64,000 nucleotides of DNA from the NCBI GenBank assembly GCA_965277415.1, contig CBDICS010000033.1, forward strand, positions 628-64,627, given 5' to 3'. The DNA is from Saprospiraceae bacterium (GTDB lineage: Bacteria; Bacteroidota; Bacteroidia; Chitinophagales; Saprospiraceae). The translations under genes and the position numbers were made by a program. Positions 34,133-52,158 of this stretch are shown piece after piece. Each line of letters begins with the position of its first letter. The first letter of the stretch is position 1. Under the pieces are notes generated by a model, which was not told where the DNA came from, searched no databases, and worked only from the letters and a program-made list of their open reading frames with translations.

Positions 34133-36046
34133 CTAAGCTTTCTTTTTGACCAATACTGCTTTCATTCCATCAGTCTTTGCTATTTCCTTATAAAAATTTC
34201 GAAGTTCTTCATATTTATCTGCGGCTACCTCAACAGCATATATTTCTAACAGTCGATTATAAACGATAATATTTTCCTTAACCTCAATACTAATTTGATA
34301 TTTTCCGAACGCTGACTCAAGCATTACTTGATCAGAAGGAATACTTTCTATTTCATAATCACCAGGAATAACATAAGTAAACGTATCTTCCTCTCTATAC
34401 TGTTTTTTTACATGTACAGGATGTATTCTTTTTTCAATTGCTTTGGGTATATTTTCGAATTGATTAAGCTTATTTAAGGGCATAAAGATACGTTTCCCTG
34501 CGGTTGATGCATACCTCGCTACAGAGATATGAAAATCCACTACTGTGAGTGGTTTCTTTTCATCATTAGAAATCTCCAATTTATCAATTGTAAAAGCAGA
34601 TAGGTTCGTATCTTCTAAAAATTCTTTTTCAATGTCCTCTTTAGAATAGTTATTTGAGAGGTATCTATAGTCATCATGTTTAGGTCCAATATACTTTGTT
34701 TGCTTTTTAATAATAGCTGCTCCTTTATTATTCAGTTCAAAAGTAGCTGTAGTCGCTTTTTTATTCTGATCTAATGGAAATGCTGGTGTGTTTATTATTT
34801 TACCTCCTTCCTCTGTGAGTAGTAAACTTTGTCGGCCTTCATTTCCCGAACCGATATAATTGGGTGGATAATCATTGCTCGTACATTCCAACCATATATC
34901 TTCTGACGGAATATTAATAATAACATGGTTAAAGCCAGGGTTTGCAAAATCCTCATCTATTTCTATTTTAGTATTACGGCTACTATAAATCAATGATTGA
35001 TATGATTTTATGCCTGCTACATTAAGCATAGATTTCATATAATTAGAAAGTGCTTTACAATCACCATATTTGTTTTTTTCTACATATTTAGCATCAAAAG
35101 TTTGCCATCCTCCAATTCCTAATTGTACGCTTACATAGCGCATATTATCTTGTAAATATTTGTAAAGGATAGCTATTTTTTCTTGATCATTTTTCGCATT
35201 AACAATAAGGTTTTTAACTTTTTTGGCCATCTCTGGACTCAATTCATCTCGCCCTTTATTAAGATCATACATAAACTGCCCAAAAGATGCCCAAGTAGAC
35301 ATATCTCCAGAATAATTATCATACTCAAATTTAGTCGGTGCAATTTTAATGGCTGGCCGGATCTTATGTTGATAGGGAGCATATGGTTCTGATTTCAATG
35401 CAGGTAATGAACTTGCCAGCCAAGAATAAACTACTTTTTTTCCCTCTTCTTCAATACTTGGTTCTAAATCTATATTTTCAGATTTATATCTTAATTTCAA
35501 GTCCTTAGGTATCTCTACTACAAACTTAAAATGCTCGACAGCCCTTGCATAGCTTTGTAAATAACTCGATGGGTAATAGAGTAAGCCTTTGAAGTTTTGA
35601 GTGTATTCTATTTCTACTGTATACGGATAACTATTATGATATAAGTTAATATATTTGACCCGATCATCCTCATAAATTGAAAAATCCGAGATAGCACTTT
35701 GATCAATAAATTCTTTACCTCTCACCTTTCTCACCTCTTTACCAAAAGCATCATAAACTTTTGCTGAAAGATTTGTAACTTTTGTAAGTTTATCATAACT
35801 GACATATTGAGTATGAGCGCGACTTTTATCATTGAGCAATGTGACGACATACTTTACTTTTAGGGTCGCAAGTTTAGGGCTTTCAATCTTGAAGTTCATA
35901 TAATCTAATCTCACAACTTCGTTTGCATTCTCCGTCAATTCATTAGGTAGATTAAAGACACTGTATTGACCAATTTGTGCACTGATCGTATTGTTTATAT
36001 TCAAAAGTGCTAGAACTATAAAAATATATTTGAATGACATTTTCAT
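34133..36046 (-). CDS. DUF3857/transglutaminase-like secreted protein (catalytic Cys present)
   Basis: 637 aa. Signal with ISA|QI. Transglutaminase core YGDCKAL ... FNHVI. Confidence 0.75.
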   Translation of the reverse strand: MKMSFKYIFIVLALLNINNTISAQIGQYSVFNLPNELTENANEVVRLDYMNFKIESPKLATLKVKYVVTLLNDKSRAHTQYVSYDKLTKVTNLSAKVYDAFGKEVRKVRGKEFIDQSAISDFSIYEDDRVKYINLYHNSYPYTVEIEYTQNFKGLLYYPSSYLQSYARAVEHFKFVVEIPKDLKLRYKSENIDLEPSIEEEGKKVVYSWLASSLPALKSEPYAPYQHKIRPAIKIAPTKFEYDNYSGDMSTWASFGQFMYDLNKGRDELSPEMAKKVKNLIVNAKNDQEKIAILYKYLQDNMRYVSVQLGIGGWQTFDAKYVEKNKYGDCKALSNYMKSMLNVAGIKSYQSLIYSSRNTKIEIDEDFANPGFNHVIINIPSEDIWLECTSNDYPPNYIGSGNEGRQSLLLTEEGGKIINTPAFPLDQNKKATTATFELNNKGAAIIKKQTKYIGPKHDDYRYLSNNYSKEDIEKEFLEDTNLSAFTIDKLEISNDEKKPLTVVDFHISVARYASTAGKRIFMPLNKLNQFENIPKAIEKRIHPVHVKKQYREEDTFTYVIPGDYEIESIPSDQVMLESAFGKYQISIEVKENIIVYNRLLEIYAVEVAADKYEELRNFYKEIAKTDGMKAVLVKKKA

Positions 36047-36091
36047 CTTTTTTGTTGCTTAAAAATAATTTCTTCTAGATTTTCAATCAAA

Positions 36092-38092
36092 TCAACTCTT
36101 CTTTTTAAGTACAATCTGCTCTCCATGTTTTTCAACAATAATATCAAAGAAGTTCTTAATTATGCCATACTCTTCAGGTTCATAATGTAGTTTTTTTATA
36201 CTTACTTTACTAATTACCTGGATGGTTTGCCCATTGTGACTAACTAGGTATTGAAATGCTCCTCCTTTCCCATCCATTTTCAAATTAATTGCTTCAGGCA
36301 AGGCTTCAATTACATAATCATTGGGTATGGTTAAATTTAGAATAAATTGGTTTTTCGATTTTAAAGCAATATCAACAGGGAAAGTTCTTTCCTCTTGCTT
36401 AAGTGGATTTTCATCATAACCTAAGCCTAGCATTGGAGATAAATAAATAAATTCTCCATTGGCTTGTGCTGCTTCAGGGATTTCTATATCTAAATTGCAC
36501 TTTAGAGGTTTTGATACCATTTGTTCGTTTTCAAAGTTAATGGATTTGATATTTATATCTGGAAATGCCTCTTGCCATTCTTCTCGAATATCTTTATGAT
36601 CCTCTCCTTTGAATTTATGAAAATTGGTTCTGCCATCCATAGCACAGTAGCCTTTAAGGCTTTTGTTTATTGTTCCAAAAACATTTCCATTTTCTTCAAG
36701 TGTCAAATTGGCCATTGCTACTTCTGTATCGCTTCCTCCGGGAATCTCTATCCATTGTGATTTTTCTCCATCTACTAGCCAGCCTCTATAATTAAGAGAA
36801 TTCATTCGCAATAGCTTAGGATCTCTTGTTGGGCTACCAACATCGAATAAACTTTCCTTTTCACCAAATTTAGCATAAGCAATAACATGATTAAACTGAT
36901 CTAATTTAGGATAATATTCCATTGTTCGTCCATGATTTCTAGTGCTTATTAGTATCGGATAAGCTTCTATATTGAAACGTCTACAAACTGCTATGAACAT
37001 CAAATTTAATTCTCCGCTAGATGCTGATTTTGTTCTAAATGCTTCATCCAAGGAAGGAGAAGTAATTCCATATTCTTTATTCCACTGTATGTTTTGAGAG
37101 AGATAGGAATAGATTGTTGATATTTTTTCTTCATCACTTTCATCATCTGCCAGCAATGGATCTATCGCAGCTACCAAATCTCTGGTAAATCTTTTCTTAT
37201 TTAATTGGACACCAAATTTGAGATTTTGCTCTAAATCCTTCGCTACTTTCTCCCAATTACCCGTAACATTTTCTCCAACACTGTTTGGGAATTTCACAAA
37301 TTGTAATTGTAAAGAAAGTTTTGAATAATAATCTCGCATGGTTGTAATAAATGGTTCCCTCTTTAATGCTGGTGCATTTTCTACTATATACCTTGTCACT
37401 TCAACATTTACACTTAAGCTTCCTGCAGATGATGATGTGTCAAAAGAGTTTCTAAGACGGGAAGTAGACATCGTACGAGATGTCTCAGATCTTTCTATTT
37501 TAGGAGATAAACCCTGATCAAATGAGACATAATGAAACCACTCTGGTATTTCGGTTCGGAATTCACTTAGTCTTGTTGGGATATCTGATTGAAAATACCA
37601 ATCCTCTAAATAATAAATCATCCCAGATCTTTTTGAGTATTTATATTCAATTATACAGCCCTCTTCAAGACTTGGAAAAGCAATTTTTTTGCTCGACCAA
37701 TATTCATCAACCTTTTCATCAAAAATATCTTTTTTATTGACACTTATCTTTTCACCATTAGGTAAGATCACTTGAGCCTTAAGCCCTGACAGTTTTTCTG
37801 ATTTCTTATATGAATAATACGGAATCTCAACGTCTCCTCTCTCATAAGCAGATTTTTTAAGAATCTTTATTCGAACATGATGATCTAAAGTATATTCAAT
37901 TCCACTTTCAGTAAAATCAAAATAGAGTCTCGCATAATCTGCTAGTACGACTGCCTCAGCTTCCTGATCTAGTTCATAAGTTTTCATTTTTAGATCAGCT
38001 TGACTTACCTTCCCCCATTTAATTGGGGCTTTTTGAGCAAATAGACTAAAGTAAAATAATATACAAAAGTAAAAAGCGGTTGAAGTTTTCAT
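36092..38092 (-). CDS. DUF3857/transglutaminase-like secreted paralogue (catalytic Cys apparently replaced)
   Basis: 666 aa. Signal with LFA|QK. By my by-eye alignment the equivalent core reads SSGELNLM ... FNHVI, with Leu where the Cys is expected. Confidence 0.7.
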   Translation of the reverse strand: MKTSTAFYFCILFYFSLFAQKAPIKWGKVSQADLKMKTYELDQEAEAVVLADYARLYFDFTESGIEYTLDHHVRIKILKKSAYERGDVEIPYYSYKKSEKLSGLKAQVILPNGEKISVNKKDIFDEKVDEYWSSKKIAFPSLEEGCIIEYKYSKRSGMIYYLEDWYFQSDIPTRLSEFRTEIPEWFHYVSFDQGLSPKIERSETSRTMSTSRLRNSFDTSSSAGSLSVNVEVTRYIVENAPALKREPFITTMRDYYSKLSLQLQFVKFPNSVGENVTGNWEKVAKDLEQNLKFGVQLNKKRFTRDLVAAIDPLLADDESDEEKISTIYSYLSQNIQWNKEYGITSPSLDEAFRTKSASSGELNLMFIAVCRRFNIEAYPILISTRNHGRTMEYYPKLDQFNHVIAYAKFGEKESLFDVGSPTRDPKLLRMNSLNYRGWLVDGEKSQWIEIPGGSDTEVAMANLTLEENGNVFGTINKSLKGYCAMDGRTNFHKFKGEDHKDIREEWQEAFPDINIKSINFENEQMVSKPLKCNLDIEIPEAAQANGEFIYLSPMLGLGYDENPLKQEERTFPVDIALKSKNQFILNLTIPNDYVIEALPEAINLKMDGKGGAFQYLVSHNGQTIQVISKVSIKKLHYEPEEYGIIKNFFDIIVEKHGEQIVLKKKS

Positions 38093-40120: not shown

Positions 40121-42628
40121 ATGAATAAACAAAGCCAAGCTTCCAACAATAGTCAATTAAGTAGTAAATGGAACTATTTAAAAGGGGAATACCAACAATT
40201 CAAGACAGACTTCCCGAGAATAGCTTTAGGTGTAAAAGTACTTACTGGGGCTTTCCTGGCAGGGGTGATCTTTGTTTTTAGTTTTTTTCTTATGCTTTAT
40301 TTTGGAGCATTTGGTAAGATTCCAACGACTACGGTATTAAAAGATATCCGCAATCATGAAGCTTCTGAAATATATTCATCTGATGGTGTGCTCTTAGGGA
40401 AATATTATGTTGAGAATAGAGCATTAGTCGGATTAGATGAAATATCTCCCGATATAATTAATGCGCTAATCGCAACAGAAGACGCTCGTTTTTTCCAACA
40501 TAATGGTATTGATATCAGGGCCTTTATAAGGGTATTTTTTAAAACAATCCTATTAAGTGATGAGTCTTCAGGAGGAGGTAGTACAATAAGCCAACAGCTC
40601 GCAAAAAATGTGTATAAAAGAAAGCAACATCGTTTTCTCACTATTCCGATCAATAAGATAAAAGAAATGATTATTGCTCGGCGGCTTGAAAAAGTCTATA
40701 CCAAAGAAGAATTAATCAATCTATACTTAAATACAGTTCCTTTTGGCAGTAATATGTTCGGCGTTGAAGTAGCAGCCAATCAGTTATTTAATACGACCGC
40801 TAAAGATATTAAGACTGCAGATGCAGCTGTACTCGTCGGAATGCTGAAAGGAAATACCTACTATAATCCCGTTCGAAATCCTAAGAATGCTACAAAACGC
40901 AGGAATACCGTTTTAGCACAAATGAAAAAATATGGTTATTTGGACGAGATCACTTTTGACTCTTTATACCAGTTACCGCTTGTAGTGGAATACAGCAAAG
41001 AAGGTAGCAACCTCGGTATGGCGACTTATTTTCGAGAAAATTTACGCCAAGATCTAAAAACATTAATCAGTGAATATAAAAAGCCAAATGGAGACCCCTA
41101 CAACATCTATACAGATGGGCTTAAAATTCACACAACGGTTCACTCTAAGATGCAGCAATACGCCGAGGAAGCAGTATCTGAACAGTTGAAATTACTCCAA
41201 AAATCTTTTGACAAACATTGGAAAGGTAAGAAACCTTGGGGAAATGATAAAGTGATTGAAAAGATCATGAAGAAGTCTCAGCGTTACTTATCACTCAAAG
41301 CAAAGGGGCTTGCTGATTCAGCAATTAAAGAAATATTTGATAGGCCAGTTCGAATGACAGTCTACTCTCCCAATGGAGATACCACTAAAGAAATGAGCCC
41401 CCTGGATTCTATCAAATATTATTATGCGATGCTCAATGCTGGCTTTCTCGTCATGGAGCCCAAAACAGGAGCCATTATGGCATGGGTTGGAGGTATCAAT
41501 CATCAATACTTTCAGTATGATCATGTTTATTCTAAACGGCAAGTTGGTTCAACTTTCAAACCCATTGTATATGCAAAGGCGCTTGAGCGAAATATTGATC
41601 CTTGTGATTATGTCAATAATCAATTGACCACTTATGTCGATTATGATGACTGGACACCTCAAAATTCGGATGGAAAATATGGAGGATTCTACTCTATGGA
41701 AGGAGGAATGAGCGGTTCTGTAAACGCTGTTGCGGTCAATCTCATCATGCGTGCAGAAGTAGATTCAGTCATAGATCTTGCGCACAAAATGGGGATCACT
41801 TCCAATATTCCACATGCACCCGCTATTGCTCTTGGTGCCGTTGATGTCTCCCTTTTTGACATGGTTAAAGTTTATGGAACACTGGCTAATCGTGGCCTTC
41901 GTCAGGATCCTTATTATTTGACAAAAATTGAAACCAGTGAGGGCACCTTAGTCGCAGAATTTTACAAACCGATCGAAGAACGGGTACTGGAAAAAGACAA
42001 TGCAGATATCATGATCAAAATGATGCAATCTGTTGTAGATAGTGGCACAGCAAAACGCTTAAGGTATCAATACGGTGTACAAGGCGACATTGCGGGTAAG
42101 ACAGGAACGACCAATTCTCATGCAGACGGATGGTTCATGGGTTTCACACCAAAACTAGTAGCTGGTGCCTGGGTTGGGGGCGAATCACCCCGAGTCCGAT
42201 TTAGAAGTCTAAGCCTTGGTCAGGGTGCCAATACCGCATTGCCTATATGGGGGCGATTTATGAAAAAAGTGCATAAGGATAAATCCTTGAAAAAATATAA
42301 AGGTGGTGTTTTTCCCAGCCCATCACCAGCAGTATTGGAATTATTACAATGTCCGCCTTTTTATGAAGAATTGCCAATTCTCGTAGAAGAGCCTTTTGGG
42401 GAAGAAGATGGATTTAATGCTGCACTAGAAAATATGTTGGATAATATTTTTAATAAAAAAGATAAACGCATCAACGAAAAACCTAAGCCTTCTGGAAACA
42501 CAAGTAGCCATGCTCAAAAGGAATCTGAACGCATCAGAAAACACAATGAAAAATTAAAGAAAAAAAGAGAGCGAAAAAAAAGGCGCAAAGAGGCTTGGGA
42601 TAAATTGACTAAAAAGAGGAAGAATTAG
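40121..42628 (+). CDS. bifunctional class A penicillin-binding protein (PBP1A-type)
   Basis: 835 aa. GT51 motifs ATEDARFFQHNGID and GGSTISQQLAKN. Transpeptidase motifs STFKP and KTGTT. Lys/Arg-rich C-terminal tail. Confidence 0.9.
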   Translation: MNKQSQASNNSQLSSKWNYLKGEYQQFKTDFPRIALGVKVLTGAFLAGVIFVFSFFLMLYFGAFGKIPTTTVLKDIRNHEASEIYSSDGVLLGKYYVENRALVGLDEISPDIINALIATEDARFFQHNGIDIRAFIRVFFKTILLSDESSGGGSTISQQLAKNVYKRKQHRFLTIPINKIKEMIIARRLEKVYTKEELINLYLNTVPFGSNMFGVEVAANQLFNTTAKDIKTADAAVLVGMLKGNTYYNPVRNPKNATKRRNTVLAQMKKYGYLDEITFDSLYQLPLVVEYSKEGSNLGMATYFRENLRQDLKTLISEYKKPNGDPYNIYTDGLKIHTTVHSKMQQYAEEAVSEQLKLLQKSFDKHWKGKKPWGNDKVIEKIMKKSQRYLSLKAKGLADSAIKEIFDRPVRMTVYSPNGDTTKEMSPLDSIKYYYAMLNAGFLVMEPKTGAIMAWVGGINHQYFQYDHVYSKRQVGSTFKPIVYAKALERNIDPCDYVNNQLTTYVDYDDWTPQNSDGKYGGFYSMEGGMSGSVNAVAVNLIMRAEVDSVIDLAHKMGITSNIPHAPAIALGAVDVSLFDMVKVYGTLANRGLRQDPYYLTKIETSEGTLVAEFYKPIEERVLEKDNADIMIKMMQSVVDSGTAKRLRYQYGVQGDIAGKTGTTNSHADGWFMGFTPKLVAGAWVGGESPRVRFRSLSLGQGANTALPIWGRFMKKVHKDKSLKKYKGGVFPSPSPAVLELLQCPPFYEELPILVEEPFGEEDGFNAALENMLDNIFNKKDKRINEKPKPSGNTSSHAQKESERIRKHNEKLKKKRERKKRRKEAWDKLTKKRKN

Positions 42629-43252
42629 GGGCTTAACTACGCTGCCTTTTTCATAACTTTTTCAATAATCATATCCAATAATTTATCAAAAGGAATAATC
42701 TCAATAGAAAAATGCGCTCCCATTCGCATCGGATGACTTCTAAGTAAACCTATATATTTATGAGCTACTCGCTCTAGTGCTGTTGGATTAAAGTTAATTC
42801 TAGAATGCGGTAAATAACAGAGTATTTTTAGAAACCACTTGGCTCGTTTTGTGCTGAAGTCTTCTAAAAATATTTAGCTAATATCTATTTAATACGGAAA
42901 AACACTCTATTTAACAACAAGAACAAGGCTGCTTCTAGTTGGGCTGGTGCAATTATTACTGTTTTAATATTGCTTACTATAATATTCGATCTTTTATACT
43001 GGATAGTCCGTTTGCTTTATGGTGGGTAATTGCTTAAAACAACTGCTCACTATTGAACAACACAGATAAAAAACAGAAGCATAATTCTTTTATACCTACA
43101 TTTTAACATTCTAAACTATATAACAATCAACACTGCAAATAAAAATTAGTGAAAAGAATTTTATAGATATAATGTTGTTAATCAAAAAGTTATGACACAT
43201 GAGTCCAGTAGGCAAAGACATAATCAAGCTCAAAAAAACAATACAAAAACAG

Positions 43253-43280
43253 GGTAAAAAACGGATAGATGTTTTTTACC
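43253..43280 (-). terminator. AT-rich hairpin about 75 nt downstream of the micro-ORF
   Basis: GGTAAAAAAC-ggatagat-GTTTTTTACC: 10-bp perfect stem. Confidence 0.3.
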
Positions 43281-43353
43281 TGAGAATATTTATGCATATC
43301 TTCGAGATGTATCAGTAGCTTTTAATGCTACATTCCGTTCTAAAACACAACAG

Positions 43354-43485
43354 TTAAAAAATGTCTGTATCACCGGTGATGATATAGTCTGTACTGACCG
43401 TTACTGTGTCAGTACCACCCTTGATACTGCATTGTTGCTTTTTATCAAGATTCGATGCTTTTGTCTGTACTTCATGGATTGTCAT
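43354..43485 (-). CDS. 43-aa micro-ORF with double-glycine-type leader motif (candidate secreted peptide precursor)
   Basis: Codon-by-codon own translation: MTIHEVQTKASNLDKKQQCSIKGG TDTVTVSTDYIITGDTDIF. It is the 3' part of track ORF 43354..43623. TACATTTG (a TAnnTTTG -7-type box, reverse complement of 43515..43522) lies 29 nt upstream. Confidence 0.35.
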   Translation of the reverse strand: MTIHEVQTKASNLDKKQQCSIKGGTDTVTVSTDYIITGDTDIF

Positions 43486-43501
43486 GATGTTATATTTTAA
43501 T

Positions 43502-43627
43502 GTGATTAATACTACAAATGTAGTGTATATATCATCTACTACAATCACAAAATAGATACAAATCACAGTACTCTTTGAGTAGAGTTTCGACAAAGCGATT
43601 AGAGACAAATCACTCAATATCAATCAC
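43502..43627. promoter_or_regulatory. divergent promoter region with repeated GTGATT/AATCAC hexamers
   Basis: AATCAC at 43543-48, 43561-66, 43608-13 and 43622-27. GTGATT at 43502-07. The 14-mers TAGATACAAATCAC (43553-66) and TAGAGACAAATCAC (43600-13) differ at 1 position. Confidence 0.3.
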
Positions 43628-43647
43628 TTGAGCAAACTAAGTTATAT

Positions 43648-45150
43648 ATGCGCATACTTTATGAATTAATAGACACTTTGCCAGATAATTTCATCCCTGA
43701 TTTACCTCCGAGACTAACCAAACTCTACCTGTTTGTAAAGAAGAACAAACAACTAAGCGAAAAACAGGCTGCCACTATATACTTAGAAGATAGCAATAAA
43801 ACAAAGTACTTTAATATTCTAAAAAGTGATCTTAAAAAAGCTTTGATTCTTCGTCTCATAGCTACGCCTTCAATATCTACCAACAAGGATAAAGCCTTAA
43901 TAGAAAACTGCTACCGCATTCATGCCAACTATAAGATATTTTTACTAAATAACAAACGAGAGACCGCTATAGAAATGGCCAGAAGCTTATTGCCAAAACT
44001 ACAGAAACTAGAACTCTATGTTCTACTCTATAGTGTAGCTGATGATCTACTCATTCATTATTCTGTGATAGATTTTTCTGTAAAGAGACAAAAAAAATAT
44101 GCTGCCCTTACAAAGCAAGCACTTGTAGACCTTAATGCATACGCTCAAGTTCGAGAGTATTATAGTGGACTTCTATCAATATGTAATGTTCGGGAGAGCT
44201 TTTCCCAAAATATTATAAAAAAATGCATTGAGACAGTTGGTATAGTAGAACCACTCTTGCAAGTCGGGCGGCATAACACAAATCGTTTTATTTATATTAT
44301 TATCATCTGTCGATATACAGTTGTACACGACTACGAAAACATCATCAAGTATTGTGATAAGGCTTTGAATAGTTTCCCAAAAAACCACCCACATATACGA
44401 TCATTGTCCTTCATGTTTCTATTTAATAAAACTTCTGCCCTCGTACCACTTGGTAAACTAGCAGAAGCAAAACAAGTCGCCAGAGATACACTTCGCATAG
44501 TTCCAACAGGGAGTTTCAATTGGCATTTGATTCTTCTTAAGCGAATCGTAGTATGCCTTCATGCAGGAGACTTTCAAGAAGCCTATCAGCTATATAAAGC
44601 ACATGTGAAAAAGAAATGCCCTTACCCTCTCATCACAGAATATTGGAATATAATAAAAGGATATCTATACTTTCTCATTCAAGTAGGACTGATAGAACCT
44701 TATTCTAAAGAACGTTTTTACCTAGGCAAATTTCTAAATGAAATGCCAATTTACTCTAAGGATAAAGCAGGCAACAATATTAACATTTTAATTATCCAAA
44801 TACTGGTGCAAATGCGGCGTGGACAATTTGTAAAGATTATCGACCGCATTGACTCACTCAGAGAATACGCTCGGTTATACACCAGAAATGAAGAGACTAA
44901 ACGAGCGAATATTTTCATAAAGATGATTATAAAAATGGAAGCAGCACGGTTTCATAGAAAAGGTACTGAAACCAAAACCAAAACATTATTACAAAAACTA
45001 AAAACAACACCTCTTCATATGAGACAAAACCTTGCTATAGAGGTTATTCCGTATGTTGTTTTGTGGGAAGAAGTTCTCTTAATACTTGACAACAAATTTA
45101 GAACGACCGTAGTGAGACAAGTACAAACAAATACACCAAAGAAAAAATAG
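43648..45150 (+). CDS. orphan all-helical TPR-like repeat protein
   Basis: 500 aa with no TM helix or signal peptide. TPR-like stretches include GKLAEAKQVARDTLRI and GDFQEAYQLYKAH. No catalytic motif recognised. Confidence 0.7.
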   Translation: MRILYELIDTLPDNFIPDLPPRLTKLYLFVKKNKQLSEKQAATIYLEDSNKTKYFNILKSDLKKALILRLIATPSISTNKDKALIENCYRIHANYKIFLLNNKRETAIEMARSLLPKLQKLELYVLLYSVADDLLIHYSVIDFSVKRQKKYAALTKQALVDLNAYAQVREYYSGLLSICNVRESFSQNIIKKCIETVGIVEPLLQVGRHNTNRFIYIIIICRYTVVHDYENIIKYCDKALNSFPKNHPHIRSLSFMFLFNKTSALVPLGKLAEAKQVARDTLRIVPTGSFNWHLILLKRIVVCLHAGDFQEAYQLYKAHVKKKCPYPLITEYWNIIKGYLYFLIQVGLIEPYSKERFYLGKFLNEMPIYSKDKAGNNINILIIQILVQMRRGQFVKIIDRIDSLREYARLYTRNEETKRANIFIKMIIKMEAARFHRKGTETKTKTLLQKLKTTPLHMRQNLAIEVIPYVVLWEEVLLILDNKFRTTVVRQVQTNTPKKK

Positions 45151-45192
45151 TTATCACTAGTAAACAATAACAAGAGAGGGGTTTTTAAAGGT

Positions 45193-45240
45193 GCAGCCTG
45201 CTACAGCGAGAAGGGCGTACGACTTCTCGTGGCGGGTTGC
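45193..45240 (+). terminator. long GC-rich hairpin 43 nt after the 500-aa gene stop
   Basis: GCAGCCTGC..CGAGAAG-ggcgtacga-CTTCTCG..GCGGGTTGC. The inner 7-bp stem is perfect and the outer 9 bp pair with G-U wobbles. About 65% GC in an AT-rich context. No strong T-run. Confidence 0.4.
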
Positions 45241-45649
45241 TAATATTAGTAAAATTTAAATATTTATAAAACATGTTAAAACAAAAGGCGATGAAACTTT
45301 TGTGCTGCATAAAGCATTATAAAAGGTAGGAATATGTGTTTCTCTAATTCACATATTTATTTTCATTTCTAACTGCCCTCGCAAGTACTTTATAACAGCC
45401 GAAAACAGAGAGAGATTATTTTTTGCCCTATGCAAAAGCATGGGGGTGGATGTATTTTTTCACCTATACAATATACTGCAATGACTTCACGACCATGCAT
45501 TGCAGCAGGGTTTGTTATGCCCTTGCTGTTCTATCAATATCTATGAACGATCTATTCTTACTAAAAACTGCTTCCTGGTAATTAGCCAGCGATTGGAGTA
45601 ATCTCTAATTCGTATCAACAATATTTTAAGAAAACTTAAACCGAATATT

Positions 45650-48600
45650 ATGTATCAACACCATATAAAATCTATTAAGACGAGCTATATGCTTTTCTTT
45701 CTATTTCTCTTCTTTTTTCCTTGTCTTTCATATGCGAATAACACTTCATCTACTCCCCCTCTATATCAAGCAGGGAAAATATATCTAAAAATAAAAGATA
45801 ATTCCTCTGTTGAATTAGGACTTCCGAATAGTAATTCAAATCCAGCTAAAATAGAAACCTTATTCCTTCAATATGGCGTCACAAAAATAATTAAGCCATT
45901 TAAAGTATATGCAAAACCAAAGTTTGATAGAATTTACCGAATCACTTTTGATGAACAAAATCTGGTAGAAGATTTCATTCGTGGTTTGGAAAATATTGCC
46001 TATATCCAGTATGCCGAAAAAGTACCTCATTATGTTGCTCATGAACTTGTTCCAGATGATCCTTCTGCCCAAAATGGAGAATCGTACCAGTTGGAACTGA
46101 TCAATGCTTATGATGCTTTTGAATTATATCCAGGTGATCCAACAGATAATTCTGCAGGTTCGCTGATTGCGATAGTCGATAATGCAGTCTTGGTAACGCA
46201 TGAAGACTTGGCAGAAAACTATATTATCGGAAGAGATGTAGCAGATAATGATGATGATCCTAATCCACCAACCAATCATGGTCTTTTTGGTCATGGTACA
46301 AGAGTCGCAGGAATTGCTTGTGCGAGAACCAACAATGGAATAGGAGTTGCTTCTATCGGGTGGAACAATCAATTAATGGCCATAAAGAGCGCTGCAGACA
46401 TTGGCTCAAACAATGGGGAAAGCTATTATGATGAAGCTATTGATGGAGTCGCTTGGGCTGCAGCTAATGGTGCGGAAGTTATTAATATGTCTTGGGGTGG
46501 AGGTGCTCCTTCAGAATCTGATTATAATGTTTTGGTCGAAGCCAGAGATTTAGGAAGTATTCTGGTATCCAGTGCTGGAAATACCAGCAATTCTCTTCCC
46601 AATTTTCCAGGCTCTTACGGAGAGGGCGAAACAGGAGAGGTTTGGGAGATTTTTGACAAACATTTAGTAATAGCTGTTGCTGCAATAGACCCTAATGGCG
46701 ATCGATCTTGGTTCTCTTCTTTTGGATCATGGGTAGATGTAGCAGCGTATGGATCAAATATTTATACCTGTTCCAGCCAAGATAATGTTAGTTATATTGA
46801 TAATCGTATCGGTACTTCTTATGCCGCTCCACTTGTTTCCGGACTCTTAGGCATGATGAAGTCCTATGCCCCGAATGCCACTAACGAAGATCTGATTAAT
46901 TGCTTACTCTACTCTGCCAATTCTGATATTTATAATCCACTAGAGCACCCTGACAATATTTCTGGTTCTTTGGGAAGCGGTAGAATAGATGCTTTGGCAG
47001 CACTATTATGTATTAATCCAAACTGCGATGATCCGCTTGCAGTCATATTCCCTTCCTCTCCAACCATTTGCCCAAACGAGGATATTACCTTATCTTCAAA
47101 TGATGGTATCGGGTATATGTGGTCTACAGGAGAGGCTACACAATCGATCAATATTTCACAGTCTGGAAATTATTCTGTTACTGTTACATTTAATGGAGGT
47201 TGTACTGCTTCAACATCGATTGATATTGATCCAGCATTATCTTCTCCTTTTATTATTATGACAGATTTGTCCGGAAATATAATTGACGAAAACCCTATCT
47301 GTGTCCCAGAAAATGGATTTTCTTATCACCTTTCCGCTTTTTGGGGAAATAGTTATTTATGGAATAATGGCAGTACTATATCGACGTATAATCCCCCAAA
47401 TGGATTTAGTGTCGTAACCAATGCTTTAGCCCCATTTCTATTGGACCGTTCGGTGAATATTTCTGGCGTTGGGGGATGTGACGGCGTGGATGAGGTAGTT
47501 TCTATACAGTATGAGTTTATACCTACCCCAGAAATAGCCTTTACATTTGAAGAAACTTCAGGTTTCGAAAATGATGGCTGGGTCTGTGAAAACGAGAATG
47601 CAAGTGTAATCATTAATGCCGTAACCGAAGAAGCCTATAACCCGACGTATATGTGGAGTACTGGAGAAACCACAAGTTTTATTGCTGTCACACCTTCCGC
47701 CACTACATCGTATTTTGTAACCATCACTAACGAATTTGGGTGTATTAATGAAAAAGAGGTTGAGGTCGAAGTCTTTCCATGTCCTGATAATGCTTGTGCT
47801 TGTACTAGTGGAAATAATGCCTATGATTTTGGAATTGATGATGGGGCAGTACACAATATGTCTGAGTTATCCGGAATTCCTCCCATAGGAATTATAACGA
47901 GTAATTGTATTAGCATCCGTGGAAAGATCCGATTTGATTTAAATCTCAATTTTTTTGAAAATTCAGTTATCTACCTCAATCCCGGAGCAGAGTTAATTGT
48001 TCCAGATGGCGAAGTACTTTCATTTGTAGACTGCACATTGATGGGCTGTGATGCCATGTGGAAGGGAATTACTGTTGAAACAGGAGGGCGATTAAATTTC
48101 AGGAATAATATAATCAGAGATGCACAATATGCCATTACAGCTCATGGGGAATCTACCTTACAAATTTTAGGCAGCACTTTCGACAGAAACTTTGTTGGTA
48201 TATACGTCCCGCCGCCAACGGCAGGTTCTCCTAATATTTTTGTTAATACGATCAATCAAGCAGATTTTGGAAGTGCAACAGCGAATTTTTCTGGTAATCA
48301 ATATCTATGTACTGGTAATCTTAAAGCGCCGTACGCTGGTCAGTTTCCTGAGCCTGGGAATATAACCTATTCAGGGCTATTACTTGCTTATGTCAATTAC
48401 TTTCAAGTCGGTTTTCCGGTTATAGGAGGTTATCGAAAAGCAACTTTTGACGGCCTTAGAAATGGAATCATTGCTTATAATACAGTCTTGGATATAGGTG
48501 GAGATATGCGAAACTTAGTTGGTGAAAATATCGGAGGCAATCCGTTTTTCCCAATTGGAGGAGGCGACTTTTCCCATTCAGGGATTGGCGTTTTTTCAGT

Positions 48601-50629
48601 CAATTCGAGTGGTCTAAGTCTATCTAATAGTATTATTGAAAATGCATATAGAGGTATTTATGCTAGGCATGTTGATATAAATGATATTAGTCAAAATACT
48701 TTTACCAATGTAAATACCGGAATAGAGGTTATTAAAAATGAAGGGAATACGATACATATTGGAGGGGAAGGCAATGATAGGAATGATATCTATTGTAGAG
48801 AAGCAGGAATCCTTATCAATGAATCAAATCGTTGTGATATCAATATTACCAATAATTATATCTTTAGGGAAGCAGGTAGCACTAGCCCCATGCTTGGAAT
48901 CGGGGTTTACAATACTATCCTAGATTTGGAGAATAGTGGCAATGTAGATAATAATGGAGGGATTGCAGATATATTTAATAATCATATTGAGTTGACCAAT
49001 TTTGATTTGGTCACCATTGACAAAGGTATTGAAATCATGAACTCTGCTTTTGTCAAAGTCAAACAAAATAGTATCTGGGAAGTAGATGGCTCGGGAGCAA
49101 AACATTTTATCTCCCTACTCGGAAATTATGGACATACACAGATACGTAATAATGAAGGATTTTCTTTTTCTCCTTCTCCCTCTAATGCATTAGGGATGAA
49201 CATCGTGAATAATACCCATACGACTTATTGTTGTAATTCGTTTATTGGCATTGATCAGGGTGTTCGTTTTTCTGGCATGTCAGACGATACTCAATTTAGA
49301 GGAACGTGGTTTGGTAATATTAATACCAGAGGATTATTGCTAGAACAAGGAACAACAATAGGCGTACAGGGTAACCCAAACACAAGCGATTATCTTCCCG
49401 GAAATAAATGGTCTGCTAATGGTGGAGGGGCTGAGCATATGGGAACATTCGCTGAAATTGATCAATCATTAATCTATTATGATCAAAATATTAATGGTTC
49501 TTATCCTGTCCCAGATCCAATCCCTAATTCTGATTGGTTTGTCCCTGACCCAAATATAAATGATCCTCTTCCAACGATTGATTGTTTTGTCAATCTAGAT
49601 TGTGAAATTGATGAACTCAATATTATTGATGATGACCCTATAGATGAAGTAGATATTAAGATTGCTGACGGAACCCTCTCCTCAGGTCATTTTGGAGGAG
49701 GAGTACATTGGGAAGGGCAAAGACATTTATATAGAAAACTTGAGCAAAACAATCAACTACTTAGTCAAAATTCTATAATTCATAATTTTCATTCTATAAA
49801 TGAAACAACCTCCCTTGGTCAATTATACGAAATTGATAGAGAGGTTTCAACATTATATCACAGTAATAATTCTGTAGTACAATCTATAATGATTCAACGA
49901 CAAAGTGTCAGAACACTTCTTCATTTAATTCAAGAAAAAGATAGTTTAATTATGGTATCTCCAGAAGACACCCATACAGGAATAAAAGCAGAACAGGCGG
50001 TATTAATTAATGAATTAAGTGTACTAAATGAAGCACTTTACAATCTTTTAACTAGTTTTAATAGTGATAAACAAAGCATAGTAAATAACATTCTTAACCT
50101 AAATAATAGCATTAGTTCACAATCTATTTTTGAGCAAAACCGCTTATCTGTAAATGATATATATCTCAATACTATAGCTGGCGACATTTTCGAACTCAAT
50201 ACTACACAATTTCAATCGCTGAAAATGATTGCTGAACAATGTCCACTGAGTGGTGGGAACGCTGTCTTTCAAGCACGAGGAATATTAAAAGCAATAGGCG
50301 ATAACACCTATTATGATAATGAACTAATATGTACTCCAGCTCAACAGAAATCAGAAGTATATACTGAAAAAGAAATGATTGCTGAACAATTAGAGGTTTA
50401 CCCTAACCCTACCAAAGATATCATAACAATAGCCTTTGATGGCTCGCTTAAGTCTGATTTAGAATTTAAATTATATGATGTGTCAGGTAAACAAATACAA
50501 GTATTTACGCTAGCTAAAGGACAAAAAGAGTATACCTTAAATTTAGCAAATACGACTAAAGGGCTGTATTTTTATGAATGTAAAATGAACCGTCAAGTTT
50601 ATAAAGGAAAAATTGTACTAATGAAATGA
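45650..50629 (+). CDS. T9SS-secreted multidomain S8 (subtilisin-family) protease with Ig-like repeats, parallel beta-helix region, helical region and type-A C-terminal sorting domain
   Basis: 1659 aa with signal peptide. Triad contexts IAIVDNAV, GHGTRVAG and GTSYAAPLVSG. Three Y(M/L)W..G.T repeats. Beta-helix-like repeats. CTD YPNPTKDIITIAF...GLYFYECK...GKIVLMK. Confidence 0.9.
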   Translation: MYQHHIKSIKTSYMLFFLFLFFFPCLSYANNTSSTPPLYQAGKIYLKIKDNSSVELGLPNSNSNPAKIETLFLQYGVTKIIKPFKVYAKPKFDRIYRITFDEQNLVEDFIRGLENIAYIQYAEKVPHYVAHELVPDDPSAQNGESYQLELINAYDAFELYPGDPTDNSAGSLIAIVDNAVLVTHEDLAENYIIGRDVADNDDDPNPPTNHGLFGHGTRVAGIACARTNNGIGVASIGWNNQLMAIKSAADIGSNNGESYYDEAIDGVAWAAANGAEVINMSWGGGAPSESDYNVLVEARDLGSILVSSAGNTSNSLPNFPGSYGEGETGEVWEIFDKHLVIAVAAIDPNGDRSWFSSFGSWVDVAAYGSNIYTCSSQDNVSYIDNRIGTSYAAPLVSGLLGMMKSYAPNATNEDLINCLLYSANSDIYNPLEHPDNISGSLGSGRIDALAALLCINPNCDDPLAVIFPSSPTICPNEDITLSSNDGIGYMWSTGEATQSINISQSGNYSVTVTFNGGCTASTSIDIDPALSSPFIIMTDLSGNIIDENPICVPENGFSYHLSAFWGNSYLWNNGSTISTYNPPNGFSVVTNALAPFLLDRSVNISGVGGCDGVDEVVSIQYEFIPTPEIAFTFEETSGFENDGWVCENENASVIINAVTEEAYNPTYMWSTGETTSFIAVTPSATTSYFVTITNEFGCINEKEVEVEVFPCPDNACACTSGNNAYDFGIDDGAVHNMSELSGIPPIGIITSNCISIRGKIRFDLNLNFFENSVIYLNPGAELIVPDGEVLSFVDCTLMGCDAMWKGITVETGGRLNFRNNIIRDAQYAITAHGESTLQILGSTFDRNFVGIYVPPPTAGSPNIFVNTINQADFGSATANFSGNQYLCTGNLKAPYAGQFPEPGNITYSGLLLAYVNYFQVGFPVIGGYRKATFDGLRNGIIAYNTVLDIGGDMRNLVGENIGGNPFFPIGGGDFSHSGIGVFSVNSSGLSLSNSIIENAYRGIYARHVDINDISQNTFTNVNTGIEVIKNEGNTIHIGGEGNDRNDIYCREAGILINESNRCDINITNNYIFREAGSTSPMLGIGVYNTILDLENSGNVDNNGGIADIFNNHIELTNFDLVTIDKGIEIMNSAFVKVKQNSIWEVDGSGAKHFISLLGNYGHTQIRNNEGFSFSPSPSNALGMNIVNNTHTTYCCNSFIGIDQGVRFSGMSDDTQFRGTWFGNINTRGLLLEQGTTIGVQGNPNTSDYLPGNKWSANGGGAEHMGTFAEIDQSLIYYDQNINGSYPVPDPIPNSDWFVPDPNINDPLPTIDCFVNLDCEIDELNIIDDDPIDEVDIKIADGTLSSGHFGGGVHWEGQRHLYRKLEQNNQLLSQNSIIHNFHSINETTSLGQLYEIDREVSTLYHSNNSVVQSIMIQRQSVRTLLHLIQEKDSLIMVSPEDTHTGIKAEQAVLINELSVLNEALYNLLTSFNSDKQSIVNNILNLNNSISSQSIFEQNRLSVNDIYLNTIAGDIFELNTTQFQSLKMIAEQCPLSGGNAVFQARGILKAIGDNTYYDNELICTPAQQKSEVYTEKEMIAEQLEVYPNPTKDIITIAFDGSLKSDLEFKLYDVSGKQIQVFTLAKGQKEYTLNLANTTKGLYFYECKMNRQVYKGKIVLMK

Positions 50630-52158
50630 TACTTCTTTTAAAAAGAAATACATTTATATTACTCGTGTTGTTGTGTATTGGAACTTCCAATGCACAACGG
50701 CACGATAATGTTTGGTTGTTTGGATACAGTAGTAGTCCTGATTCTACTTTTGGTGGCAGCGTATTGGAATTCAATGAAGATACAATCAATAGTTATTATC
50801 AGGATAGAGATATGAATTTTAGCCAAACAAATACCAGTATGAGTGATACTTCCGGTAATTTACTATTTTATACTAATGGAATATACATTGCTAATACCGA
50901 ACATGATACCATGCAAAATGGTGACGGAATCAATCCAGGAGAATATGCAGATGACCATGCTTATTATGGTTATATATTAAGTCAAGGAACTTTAGCTATT
51001 CCAAAGCCAGAAAGCGAAAACCTCTATTATTTATTCCATACTTCTTTAGACTACCCCAATAACCAAATTAGTTTTCATAGCCCTTTATTCTATTACTCTC
51101 TAATAGATATGAGTCTAGATAATGGTTTAGGCGCAGTCATTCAAAAAAACCAAATCATCATTGATGATATTTTAACGCTAGGAAGAGTCACTGCCACCAA
51201 ACATGCTAACGGACGAGACTGGTGGATATTGCTTAGAAAATATGCTGCCAACAAATATTACAGAATTTTGGTAACGCCTGACGGAGTTGTTAATCACGGT
51301 ATACAAGAAATTGGAGTTCCTTTTAGCGACGGAGTTGGGCAAGCTGTTTTTTCTCCTAATGGTAGAAAATATGTAGTGTATAATGGCAATTTCATTGATG
51401 AAGGCGGACTGCTTAACATTTACGACTTTGACAGATGTTCCGGAGACTTAAGCAATCCTATACAAACCTCAATGGTGGATTCAGCTTATTCTCTAGGAGC
51501 TGCTGTCTCTCCCAATTCCAGATACTTATATCTTTCTTCTTATAATTATATCTATCAATACGATCTAGAAGCTGATGATGTCCTCGCATCCAAAGACACG
51601 GTCGCAATTTATGATGGGTATGAAGTTGAAATAACGCCAACGATTGGTGCTCCTACACGGTTCAAATATATGCAATTAGCTCCTGATGGCAAGATTTATA
51701 TCAATATTCCTGGTGCAGTGAATGTTCTACATGTTATCAATCAGCCCAATGAAGCAGGAGATGCTTGTGAGGTAGCACAGCATAGTATCCCCCTACCGAC
51801 TTTCAATGCGCACTCTTTGCCTCATTTTCCAAACTACCGACTTGGGGCAGATACAGAGAGTCTTTGTGATACCATTACTTCAGTTGAAGCCCCTACTACT
51901 ACACACAAGCATAATAGCATTAAGATATTTCCGAATCCTACAAATGAAGTCCTCAATTTAGACTTTGATCAAATAATAGATTCAGACTTTGTTTTTGAAA
52001 TTTACGATGTGTCTGGAAAATTGATGACTAGTTTTGAGCTAGCCCAAGGACTAAGACAATACTCCATCCGCCTATCAGATTTACAGGAAGGGATTTATTT
52101 TTATGCGTGTAAGCTCGGTAATCAATCCTTTAATGGAAAAATTGTATTGATGAAATGA
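50626..52158 (+). CDS. T9SS-secreted beta-propeller-like protein with type-A C-terminal sorting domain
   Basis: 510 aa. Its ATG overlaps the upstream TGA (ATGA at 50626-50629). Signal with SNA|QR. Motifs LLFYTNG, HANGRDWWIL and LAPDGKIYI. CTD FPNPTNEVLNLDF...GIYFYACK...GKIVLMK. Confidence 0.85.
   Translation: MILLLKRNTFILLVLLCIGTSNAQRHDNVWLFGYSSSPDSTFGGSVLEFNEDTINSYYQDRDMNFSQTNTSMSDTSGNLLFYTNGIYIANTEHDTMQNGDGINPGEYADDHAYYGYILSQGTLAIPKPESENLYYLFHTSLDYPNNQISFHSPLFYYSLIDMSLDNGLGAVIQKNQIIIDDILTLGRVTATKHANGRDWWILLRKYAANKYYRILVTPDGVVNHGIQEIGVPFSDGVGQAVFSPNGRKYVVYNGNFIDEGGLLNIYDFDRCSGDLSNPIQTSMVDSAYSLGAAVSPNSRYLYLSSYNYIYQYDLEADDVLASKDTVAIYDGYEVEITPTIGAPTRFKYMQLAPDGKIYINIPGAVNVLHVINQPNEAGDACEVAQHSIPLPTFNAHSLPHFPNYRLGADTESLCDTITSVEAPTTTHKHNSIKIFPNPTNEVLNLDFDQIIDSDFVFEIYDVSGKLMTSFELAQGLRQYSIRLSDLQEGIYFYACKLGNQSFNGKIVLMK

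Follow-up and report, generated by a model that had tools for sequence, protein, structure and literature searches.

Quorum sensing by peptides that are read by cytoplasmic tetratricopeptide repeat (TPR) receptors is regarded as characteristic of Firmicutes and their phages. In the systems grouped as RRNPP(A) (Rap-Phr, NprR-NprX, PlcR-PapR, PrgX, Rgg-SHP, ComR-XIP and AimR-AimP), a small propeptide gene is combined with the gene for a TPR-type protein of the cytoplasm, the peptide carries its information at the C-terminal end of its precursor, many diversified paralogous cassettes occur per genome, and genes for secreted proteases or toxins are often found alongside. Here we analyse a 64,000-nt stretch of DNA from a Saprospiraceae bacterium (GCA_965277415.1, contig CBDICS010000033.1, positions 628-64,627 of the forward strand; hereafter the window, meaning this whole stretch) that resembles these systems in all four respects. 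A micro open reading frame (micro-ORF) of 43 aa is arranged divergently to the gene for a 500-aa TPR-like protein, the candidate peptide receptor, which is followed by the gene for a secreted subtilisin-family (S8) protease; furthermore, the best structural match to the 500-aa protein in the PDB is AimR. The locus departs from the RRNPP(A) systems in that its host is a diderm member of the Bacteroidota and in that it falls outside the group when sequence homology is the criterion. Moreover, the putative receptor is longer (500 aa) and carries a family-specific invariant loop motif, the leader is by its pattern of the double-glycine type instead of being Sec-type, PptAB-type or absent, the peptides are strongly acidic, and the DNA-binding domain is putative.

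The layout is also reminiscent of Rgg/SHP in streptococci, where a micro-ORF diverges from the receptor gene across a short shared promoter. Some clades of the family described here encode hydrophobic peptides of very short length whose hydrophobic C-terminus is preceded by an acidic residue (e.g., MEMLQLILMLLGIITEDFDGL), features that also characterise the short hydrophobic peptides (SHPs). Rgg proteins, however, are about 285 aa long with a clear helix-turn-helix (HTH) of the XRE type, and SHPs, whose N-terminus is basic, undergo processing by Eep and PptAB.

Large surveys of RRNPP systems cover Firmicutes only and mention no systems from Bacteroidota (PMC10075063, PMC9765709). A full-text literature search for an RRNPP-like system in Saprospiraceae or Bacteroidota found nothing.

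From comparison of loci, it is well supported that the micro-ORF and the 500-aa gene are a functional peptide/TPR-protein pair in a conserved two-gene cassette, and by analogy an RRNPP-like signalling role is plausible. Our preferred reading, which we hold tentatively and place a little short of probable, is that of a self-contained peptide/receptor signalling cassette, RRNPP-like in architecture and either extremely diverged or convergent. The first-pass annotation of this DNA had suggested a three-part logic of peptide, receptor and protease. The first two parts stand, as a conserved peptide/TPR-protein pair, the protein of which has a TPR-like fold with AimR as its best match, whereas the protease is not conserved. 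The four sequence parts that it had listed (the micro-ORF, the 500-aa protein, their shared promoter, and a structured leader followed by the secreted proteins) are all present, with adjustments to the exact position of the micro-ORF ATG and to the HTH of the 500-aa protein, which is putative.

A divergent micro-ORF accompanies the 500-aa protein across its family

The micro-ORF (ATG at 43485-43483, stop at 43356-43354, minus strand; Table 1) had been annotated as encoding a peptide with a GG leader, with the proviso that it might be spurious. Its homologues are conserved, and the exact peptide of the window is a called, unnamed gene in public collections, as are other micro-ORFs of the family. 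The conserved divergent homologues and the public gene calls together rule out a spurious ORF.

The window was compared with 79 loci from related genomes and with 11 close-clade loci fetched later (L080-L090). Close homologues of the receptor among the genome loci (L002-L008) share 46-57% identity, and distant ones 27-35%. A divergent micro-ORF lies upstream in all of L002-L008, encoding a leader that ends in [IL]KGG, then a short part rich in S, T, D and N, and finally a hydrophobic-acidic C-terminus. Likewise, 11 of 11 loci in the later set carry a divergent GG peptide of 40-46 aa, whose C-terminus follows an I-I-x-x-D-x-[D/N] type motif in nine cases and a variant in two. The closest relative, L080 (69% receptor identity), encodes almost the window's peptide, with IKGG followed by TDSTTTSTSHIISGDTDVF. 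Every intact receptor gene of the close clade that we examined has a homologous divergent micro-ORF upstream, and the spacing between the divergent start codons, 162 nt in the window, is conserved across the family (median 166 nt). A metagenome scan with a single protein contributed just two extra loci.

The pairing extends over 27-69% receptor identity. A position weight matrix (PWM) was built from the nine close-clade C-terminal 9-mers only and applied to distant upstream regions, so that the test is non-circular; against random windows, 31 of the 80 regions exceeded the 95th percentile and 20 the 99th (distant loci versus null, Mann-Whitney p=5e-17). After refinement of the PWM, 62,586 stop-adjacent 9-mers in 1.3 Mb were ranked; of the 44 best, 41 lay no further than 1 kb upstream of a gene of the family, nearly all of them divergent and at a distance of 220-300 nt, a result that is circular because the matrix was trained on these sites. 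Since a divergent peptide with a conserved C-terminus accompanies the family, we take the micro-ORF to be real and the two genes to be paired. A co-occurrence analysis had been proposed that would score neighbouring micro-ORFs and S8 or type IX secretion system (T9SS) genes beside homologues of the 500-aa protein; micro-ORFs are linked to the family, whereas the S8/T9SS genes of the window have no homologue next to the receptor in the 79 loci.

Across the family, the C-terminal 9-mer is conserved as I-I-x-x-D-[I/M]-D-x-hydrophobic. The peptides recovered with the close-clade matrix share the broader pattern I-I-x-x-D-[I/M/L]-[D/N/S]-x-hydrophobic, in which Asp at -5 is essentially invariant. 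The leaders vary by clade and comprise the GG type of the window's clade, hydrophobic N-termini ('MAAIIAFMISLGVI..' or 'MAAIIAFMISLGVITSSEQATPELIDQY...') and short SHP-like peptides such as MEMLQLILMLLGIITEDFDGL. A variable leader and a variable low-complexity spacer before a conserved C-terminal 9-mer are as expected if the C-terminus is the recognised ligand. This combination of variable leader and conserved C-terminus is the reverse of most precursors of ribosomally synthesised and post-translationally modified peptides (RiPPs). The peptides are anionic (-3 to -5; net charge -4 for the predicted released peptide of the window) and free of Cys, and the 500-aa receptor is basic (pI 9.75).

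Hydrophobic residues stand at -4 and -12 before the GG of the window's leader, and by inspection [IL]KGG with hydrophobic residues at -4, -7 and -12 is conserved among the peptides of its clade. The same leader features mark the double-glycine peptides of peptidase-containing ABC transporters (PCATs), among them ComC, the class II bacteriocin induction factors and the Bacteroidetes family TIGR04149. Unlike those peptides, the family scores below the curated cut-offs of the leader hidden Markov models (HMMs): relatives' peptides match TIGR04149 (E 0.015), ComC (0.054) and EntF (0.036), and the window's own peptide matched none of the curated double-glycine leader HMMs. A further difference is in the conserved partner, which here is a cytoplasmic TPR protein; genes for a PCAT, a radical-SAM enzyme or a histidine kinase are not adjacent.

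Individual loci depart from the one-to-one arrangement. At L001, whose receptor is 60% identical, the reading frame of the peptide ends directly behind its leader (MTIHEVQKQAVLLDKKQLRTIKD*) and is followed by a different small ORF (L001:1150-1360, MEKQKSKTRQQIADELGMSISTFRRWLKRNDIILPKG..., HTH-like by eye); an insertion or rearrangement could have left an orphan receptor there. At L020:9600-12860, four micro-ORFs with the motif (VIIIDPTVI, IVIGDIIVP, VIIIDPTII and IVIGDVIVV) surround tandem receptor genes, and L003 (26-148) and L033 (8302-8331) each have a second motif-bearing micro-ORF further upstream. Such loci resemble the multi-propeptide arrangements known from Rap systems.

The 500-aa protein is predicted to be a TPR-like superhelix

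A word-indexed search for the family of the 500-aa protein returned 83 matches, down to 23% identity. At E<=1e-3 the family comprises 1,837 representatives of 50%-identity clusters, nearly all of about 500 aa, and it is thus large, length-uniform and entirely unnamed. The GTDB species genomes contain 237 relatives, often in several copies per genome, all of them in Saprospiraceae, Lewinellaceae, Haliscomenobacter or Phaeodactylibacter-type metagenome-assembled genomes (MAGs). The MAG JANQLV, for instance, has three cassettes (L001, L004 and L005), and members of the family are also present on the complete Saprospiraceae chromosomes OZ244935, OZ245894, OZ245751 and OZ244987. One family member (L012, BQJP01000169.1) lies on a short contig of 2.6 kb from a MAG labelled Thermodesulfobacteriota, a label that is likely a binning error because all other family matches are Saprospiraceae-type Bacteroidota. 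The most conserved motif of the family is GKFLNEMPIYSKDKAGNNINILIIQIL at about aa 355-385, its most conserved stretch reads GKFLNEVPIYSKDKAGNNINILIIQIL, and N364, D372, K373 and Y407 are invariant.

Pfam and NCBIfam gave nothing above threshold for the 500-aa protein, with weak, sub-threshold Pfam matches to TPR_14 and TPR_MalT. The AlphaFold2 (AF2) model computed with the family alignment is all-helical, with 23 helices (pLDDT 89, pTM 0.84), and has the form of a TPR-like superhelix. The protein lacks a signal peptide and any convincing transmembrane segment, which together with the model bears out its earlier description as a cytoplasmic all-helical TPR-like protein. When the model was compared with 350,542 PDB chains using Foldseek, the top nine matches were all AimR arbitrium peptide receptors, and the sole match below E 1e-3 was AimR (E 9e-4; TM-scores 0.43/0.53). 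NprR-NprX and phage Rap also appear in the list, among generic TPR proteins.

The N-terminal 72 residues, which correspond in place to the HTH DNA-binding domain of RRNPP(A) receptors or, in Rap, to a three-helix effector domain, are modelled as four helices (pLDDT 85.5). Foldseek found no significant match for this domain alone (best E 1.5), and of its 34 weak matches, 21 are to DNA-binding domains of the HTH kind, with sigma-70 region 4 and the LuxR/FixJ type at the head and WhiA and Lrp also present. Judged by this model, DNA binding by the N-terminal domain is possible.

The intergenic regions contain repeats and predicted structure

The region between the divergent genes had been described as a repeat-laden promoter, and the repeats are real and locally enriched. 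AATCAC occurs five times within 126 nt of intergenic sequence, as against 48 times in the whole 64 kb, and a 14-nt direct repeat containing it, TAGAnACAAATCAC, is present twice, 47 nt apart. On the strand of the micro-ORF, a Bacteroidetes-type -7 box (TACATTTG, 43522-43515) lies about 30 nt upstream of the start codon. With this element upstream and a hairpin and T-run downstream (Table 1), the micro-ORF seems to form a small, separate transcription unit. A scan for sigma-70 promoters was uninformative (13 sites versus 13.5 expected). Among intergenic-region pairs, matched pairs were no more similar than mismatched ones.

The sole find of a k-mer enrichment analysis was a TAGTTTTAAA-type element upstream of the peptides with hydrophobic leaders (type B), which is probably a -7 promoter box. 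At L009, L010, L018 and L035, a conserved AT-rich 5' region (tagTTTTAAAc..aaaTTTAAAa..tgTTTAAAact) abuts the ATG of type-B peptides, its position being given as ~60 nt upstream of that ATG. It holds three TTTAAA repeats and a TAGTTTTA element resembling the -7 box, and could be a promoter or operator in that clade.

Between the receptor gene and the S8 gene, the 499-nt region that had been proposed as a structured leader does fold better than its shuffles (z=-3.0) and contains a strong hairpin (45193-45240). An Rfam scan of 42500-45800 returned one chance-level match and no riboswitch or known leader. At L080, a hairpin 3' of the receptor gene is possibly comparable to that of the window, judged by eye.

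A model of peptide signalling and its alternatives

From the pairing, the C-terminal motif, the fold and the bias of the neighbouring genes towards exported products (see below), we derive a model of export, processing, re-entry, binding and regulation. The 43-aa propeptide would be transcribed from its own small unit. An ABC exporter with a peptidase domain, encoded at another place in the genome, would then cut off the double-glycine leader and carry the peptide out. This would release an anionic 19-mer, of which the conserved C-terminal ~9 residues (IITGDTDIF) would be recognised, possibly after further trimming. The basic cytoplasmic TPR superhelix would then bind the peptide or, in a weaker variant of the model, the unexported precursor. 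Binding would switch the N-terminal four-helix domain and so regulate the divergent promoter and the adjacent co-directional genes, which may be the S8 protease and its coupled partner here and other exported or T9SS proteins, including RHS toxins, in relatives.

A bolder version of this reading is somewhat less probable still. It would make the cassette the first RRNPP-like family in a Gram-negative phylum in which cytoplasmic pheromone receptors are paired with secreted cognate peptides, with 1,837 clusters apparently confined to Saprospiraceae/Lewinellaceae, GG or hydrophobic leaders, a conserved acidic C-terminal pheromone, control over T9SS proteases and toxins, and an origin that is either separate from the RRNPP systems of Firmicutes or extremely distant from them. 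If it holds, TPR-receptor peptide signalling would extend to diderm bacteria, and to ecologically important ones, given that Saprospiraceae are plentiful in activated sludge and among the degraders of marine particles. One would then have to ask by what route an anionic peptide passes two membranes, and there would be a handle on the regulation of T9SS-secreted proteases and RHS toxins. Even without signalling, the pair represents a large family, so far uncharacterised, in which a candidate ligand motif is clear.

A number of observations weigh against a signalling role. In RRNPP(A) systems, the secreted and processed peptide is taken up again via Opp and binds in the groove of the receptor. 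We know of no precedent in Bacteroidota for peptide re-import across two membranes, and the surroundings of the pair contain no conserved gene for export, import or processing. No recurrent transporter, C39-peptidase ABC exporters included, was found within +/-7-10 kb of ~90 loci, and clustering of the neighbours gave lineage-specific synteny only (MORN-caspase, HD-domain, response regulator/kinase, extracytoplasmic function (ECF) sigma factor and amidohydrolase genes), with no exporter or enzyme partner. The fold similarity to AimR is modest (TM-scores 0.43-0.53), and TPR proteins generically match one another in fold. A Pfam scan of 39 family members returned generic TPR models alone and no RRNPP family, and a profile search against all PDB sequences at E<=10 returned kinesin light chain and pentatricopeptide repeat (PPR) proteins and no RRNPP protein. 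The first-pass annotation had itself disclaimed sequence similarity to RRNPP proteins, and none is detectable by Pfam, NCBIfam or PDB profile. The HTH of the 500-aa protein is not established, given that the N-terminal profile found no HTH matches in Pfam or among the PDB sequences and the fold matches are weak. The AATCAC repeats are not conserved in other loci, even in L080, and together with the ACAAATCAC repeats they are absent from the region upstream of the protease. Neither an operator common to the peptide/receptor and protease promoters nor any locus-specific shared words were found. Finally, ~40% of the distant family genes have no peptide recognisable by motif.

The alternative that survives best, although we judge it unlikely, is that the peptide is an exported product, be it bacteriocin- or RiPP-like or one for surface or adhesion functions, and that the TPR protein, without any signalling, attaches to the conserved C-terminus of the precursor ahead of export and serves as its cytoplasmic chaperone, its export adaptor or an immunity factor. 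The pairing itself is explained equally well in this way, TPR proteins commonly chaperone C-terminal peptide motifs, the S/T-rich spacer could carry modifications, and the GG-type leader with the weak TIGR04149, ComC and EntF matches of the relatives' peptides fits an exported product. However, modifying enzymes, PCATs and immunity-type membrane proteins are not among the conserved neighbours of the pair, and the peptides are anionic, with no Cys. Conservation of the C-terminal 9-mer beside a variable leader is the opposite of what most RiPPs display, a dedicated 500-aa chaperone for a 40-aa peptide in many copies per genome would be unusual, and the best fold matches are peptide receptors.

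Slightly less probable again is a micro-ORF product that stays in the cell or inner membrane as a cis-encoded modulator of the TPR protein (an anti-activator or partner-switch tether), with the GG and hydrophobic N-termini acting as anchoring or instability elements instead of export signals. This would suit a cytoplasmic receptor for which no import system is evident, and the type-B peptides, which start with a hydrophobic helix lacking a charged n-region, could be membrane-anchored. It is harder to reconcile with the leaders of the window's clade, which are hydrophilic and fit the double-glycine consensus, and with the presence of three unrelated leader types on one C-terminal peptide, as expected if the C-terminus is released.

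We consider it very unlikely that the cassette serves in conflict or defence, for instance as a toxin-antitoxin-like system or as an abortive-infection sensor, and is carried as such a module by variable genomic islands. Family members occur in multiple copies and diversify rapidly, some relatives adjoin genes for RHS toxins, a restriction-modification methylase, Roc-COR/EAD11, ImmA/IrrE-HTH or RadC, and at L001 the truncated peptide gene with a different ORF behind it would be in keeping with such a role. Searches of PADLOC, PHROGs, BFVD and IMG/VR nevertheless found nothing, and no family copies lie on viral contigs; therefore, defence-system and phage origins are unsupported. In addition, the window copy sits between the housekeeping genes for PBP1A and an AsmA-like protein, and an enzymatic effector domain is lacking. 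Two of the later loci (L081:1-4946 and L083:882-6073) have their cassettes near genes for Roc-COR/EAD11 with a histidine kinase, an HsdM methylase, ImmA/IrrE with HTH_3, and RadC, which points to variable islands as the location of some of the family.

In the window's clade, the genes downstream of the cassette mostly encode varied exported proteins

Downstream of the receptor gene, the domain searches bear out the annotation of a T9SS-secreted subtilisin-family protease with a second, overlapping T9SS cargo. The 1659-aa protein contains Peptidase_S8 (PF00082, E 4.9e-40, 138 bits versus a cut-off of 21.8; aa 170-423), with the motifs AIVDNA, HGTRVAG and GTSYAAP visible in its translation, and a T9SS C-terminal domain (CTD) at aa 1583-1656 (PF18962 Por_Secre_tail, E 1.6e-14; TIGR04183, E 3.7e-12). 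The 510-aa protein also has a T9SS CTD (E 1.1e-13), and its ATG overlaps the stop codon of the S8 gene (ATGA, 50626-50629). With its S8 domain and type A C-terminal sorting domain, the 1659-aa protein resembles the T9SS subtilases of Bacteroidota, from which it differs in its very large size, its central NosD-like beta-helix region and its position beside a peptide/receptor cassette, which recurs only in L080.

The protease had been proposed as a fixed third component, and the comparison of loci does not bear this out. BLASTP of the window's S8, 510-aa, PBP1A and AsmA-like proteins against the ORFs of the 79 related loci gave no meaningful matches, and therefore the gene order of the window is not broadly syntenic. 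An S8 protease dedicated to extracellular maturation of the pro-peptide, by the logic of Phr/subtilisin or NprX, is accordingly the least probable alternative of all: S8+T9SS proteins lie downstream in both the window and L080, and a 19-mer released at GG might need trimming to the conserved 9-mer, but no S8 protein stands beside the receptor in any of the 79 genome loci or in L081-L090, the S8 proteins of the window and L080 are just 25% identical with different domain orders, and the genes downstream of other cassettes encode RHS toxins, CHU_C or CTD proteins, or lipoproteins.

What does recur is export. By a crude signal-peptide test, 9 of 10 co-directional downstream genes in the window's clade were positive versus 11 of 43 controls (Fisher p=3e-4). 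T9SS CTDs (type A or CHU_C) are found at positions +1 to +3 in the window, L001, L005, L006, L080, L082 and L084, as against 2.5% of all locus genes. In distant clades, the downstream genes are heterogeneous. Because the downstream genes of the clade are consistently exported yet varied, the protease is best read, on sequence grounds, as one of several interchangeable secreted outputs and not as a dedicated maturation enzyme. As no shared operator was found and the AATCAC repeats are not conserved, it is from position alone that we infer control of the protease by the cassette.

At L001:3450-11417 and L082:8625-14483, the cassette is followed by a protein of ~250 aa with a T9SS CTD and then by a giant RHS/DUF6443 protein (2380 aa and >1689 aa, respectively). 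This suggests a T9SS-linked polymorphic toxin module behind the peptide/receptor pair.

Features of the locus and its surroundings

The features of the locus are collected in Table 1.

Table 1 Features of the peptide/receptor locus and its downstream genes, in window coordinates
Feature	Position	Strand	Basis
Terminator-like hairpin with T-run, ~75 nt 3' of the micro-ORF stop	43253..43280	-	Hairpin scan
Micro-ORF, 43 aa + stop; propeptide MTIHEVQTKASNLDKKQQCSIKGG followed by TDTVTVSTDYIITGDTDIF	43354..43485	-	ORF call, homologues
Predicted released peptide, aa 25-43: S/T/D-rich spacer, then C-terminal 9-mer IITGDTDIF	43357..43413	-	Family-wide motif
Double-glycine-type leader, aa 1-24, ending IKGG	43414..43485	-	Motif kept in clade peptides
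Divergent promoter region, 162 nt; -7-like box TACATTTG and five AATCAC	43486..43647	.	
AATCAC copy	43502-07	-	
AATCAC copies	43543-48, 43561-66, 43608-13, 43622-27	+	
500-aa TPR-like protein, candidate peptide receptor	43648..45150	+	Family alignment, AF2, Foldseek
N-terminal four-helix domain, aa 1-72; possible sigma-70 region 4 / LuxR-like HTH	43648..43863	+	Model
Strong hairpin directly 3' of the receptor gene, probable terminator or insulator	45193..45240	+	Folding
1659-aa secreted protein: signal peptide, S8, NosD-like beta-helix, T9SS type A CTD; candidate regulated output	45650..50629	+	
510-aa T9SS cargo, CTD aa 434-507	50626..52158	+	

The gene for PBP1A flanks the locus upstream and that for the AsmA-like protein downstream, and housekeeping genes elsewhere in the window include those for iPGM, CysRS and MutL. 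The ~725 nt between the PBP1A gene and the micro-ORF (42629-43353) contain no ORF of more than 40 codons and include the terminator hairpin of the micro-ORF. Further upstream, at 34133-38092 on the minus strand, two tandem genes encode proteins of ~640-666 aa with one DUF3857 domain each, and are unrelated to the cassette.

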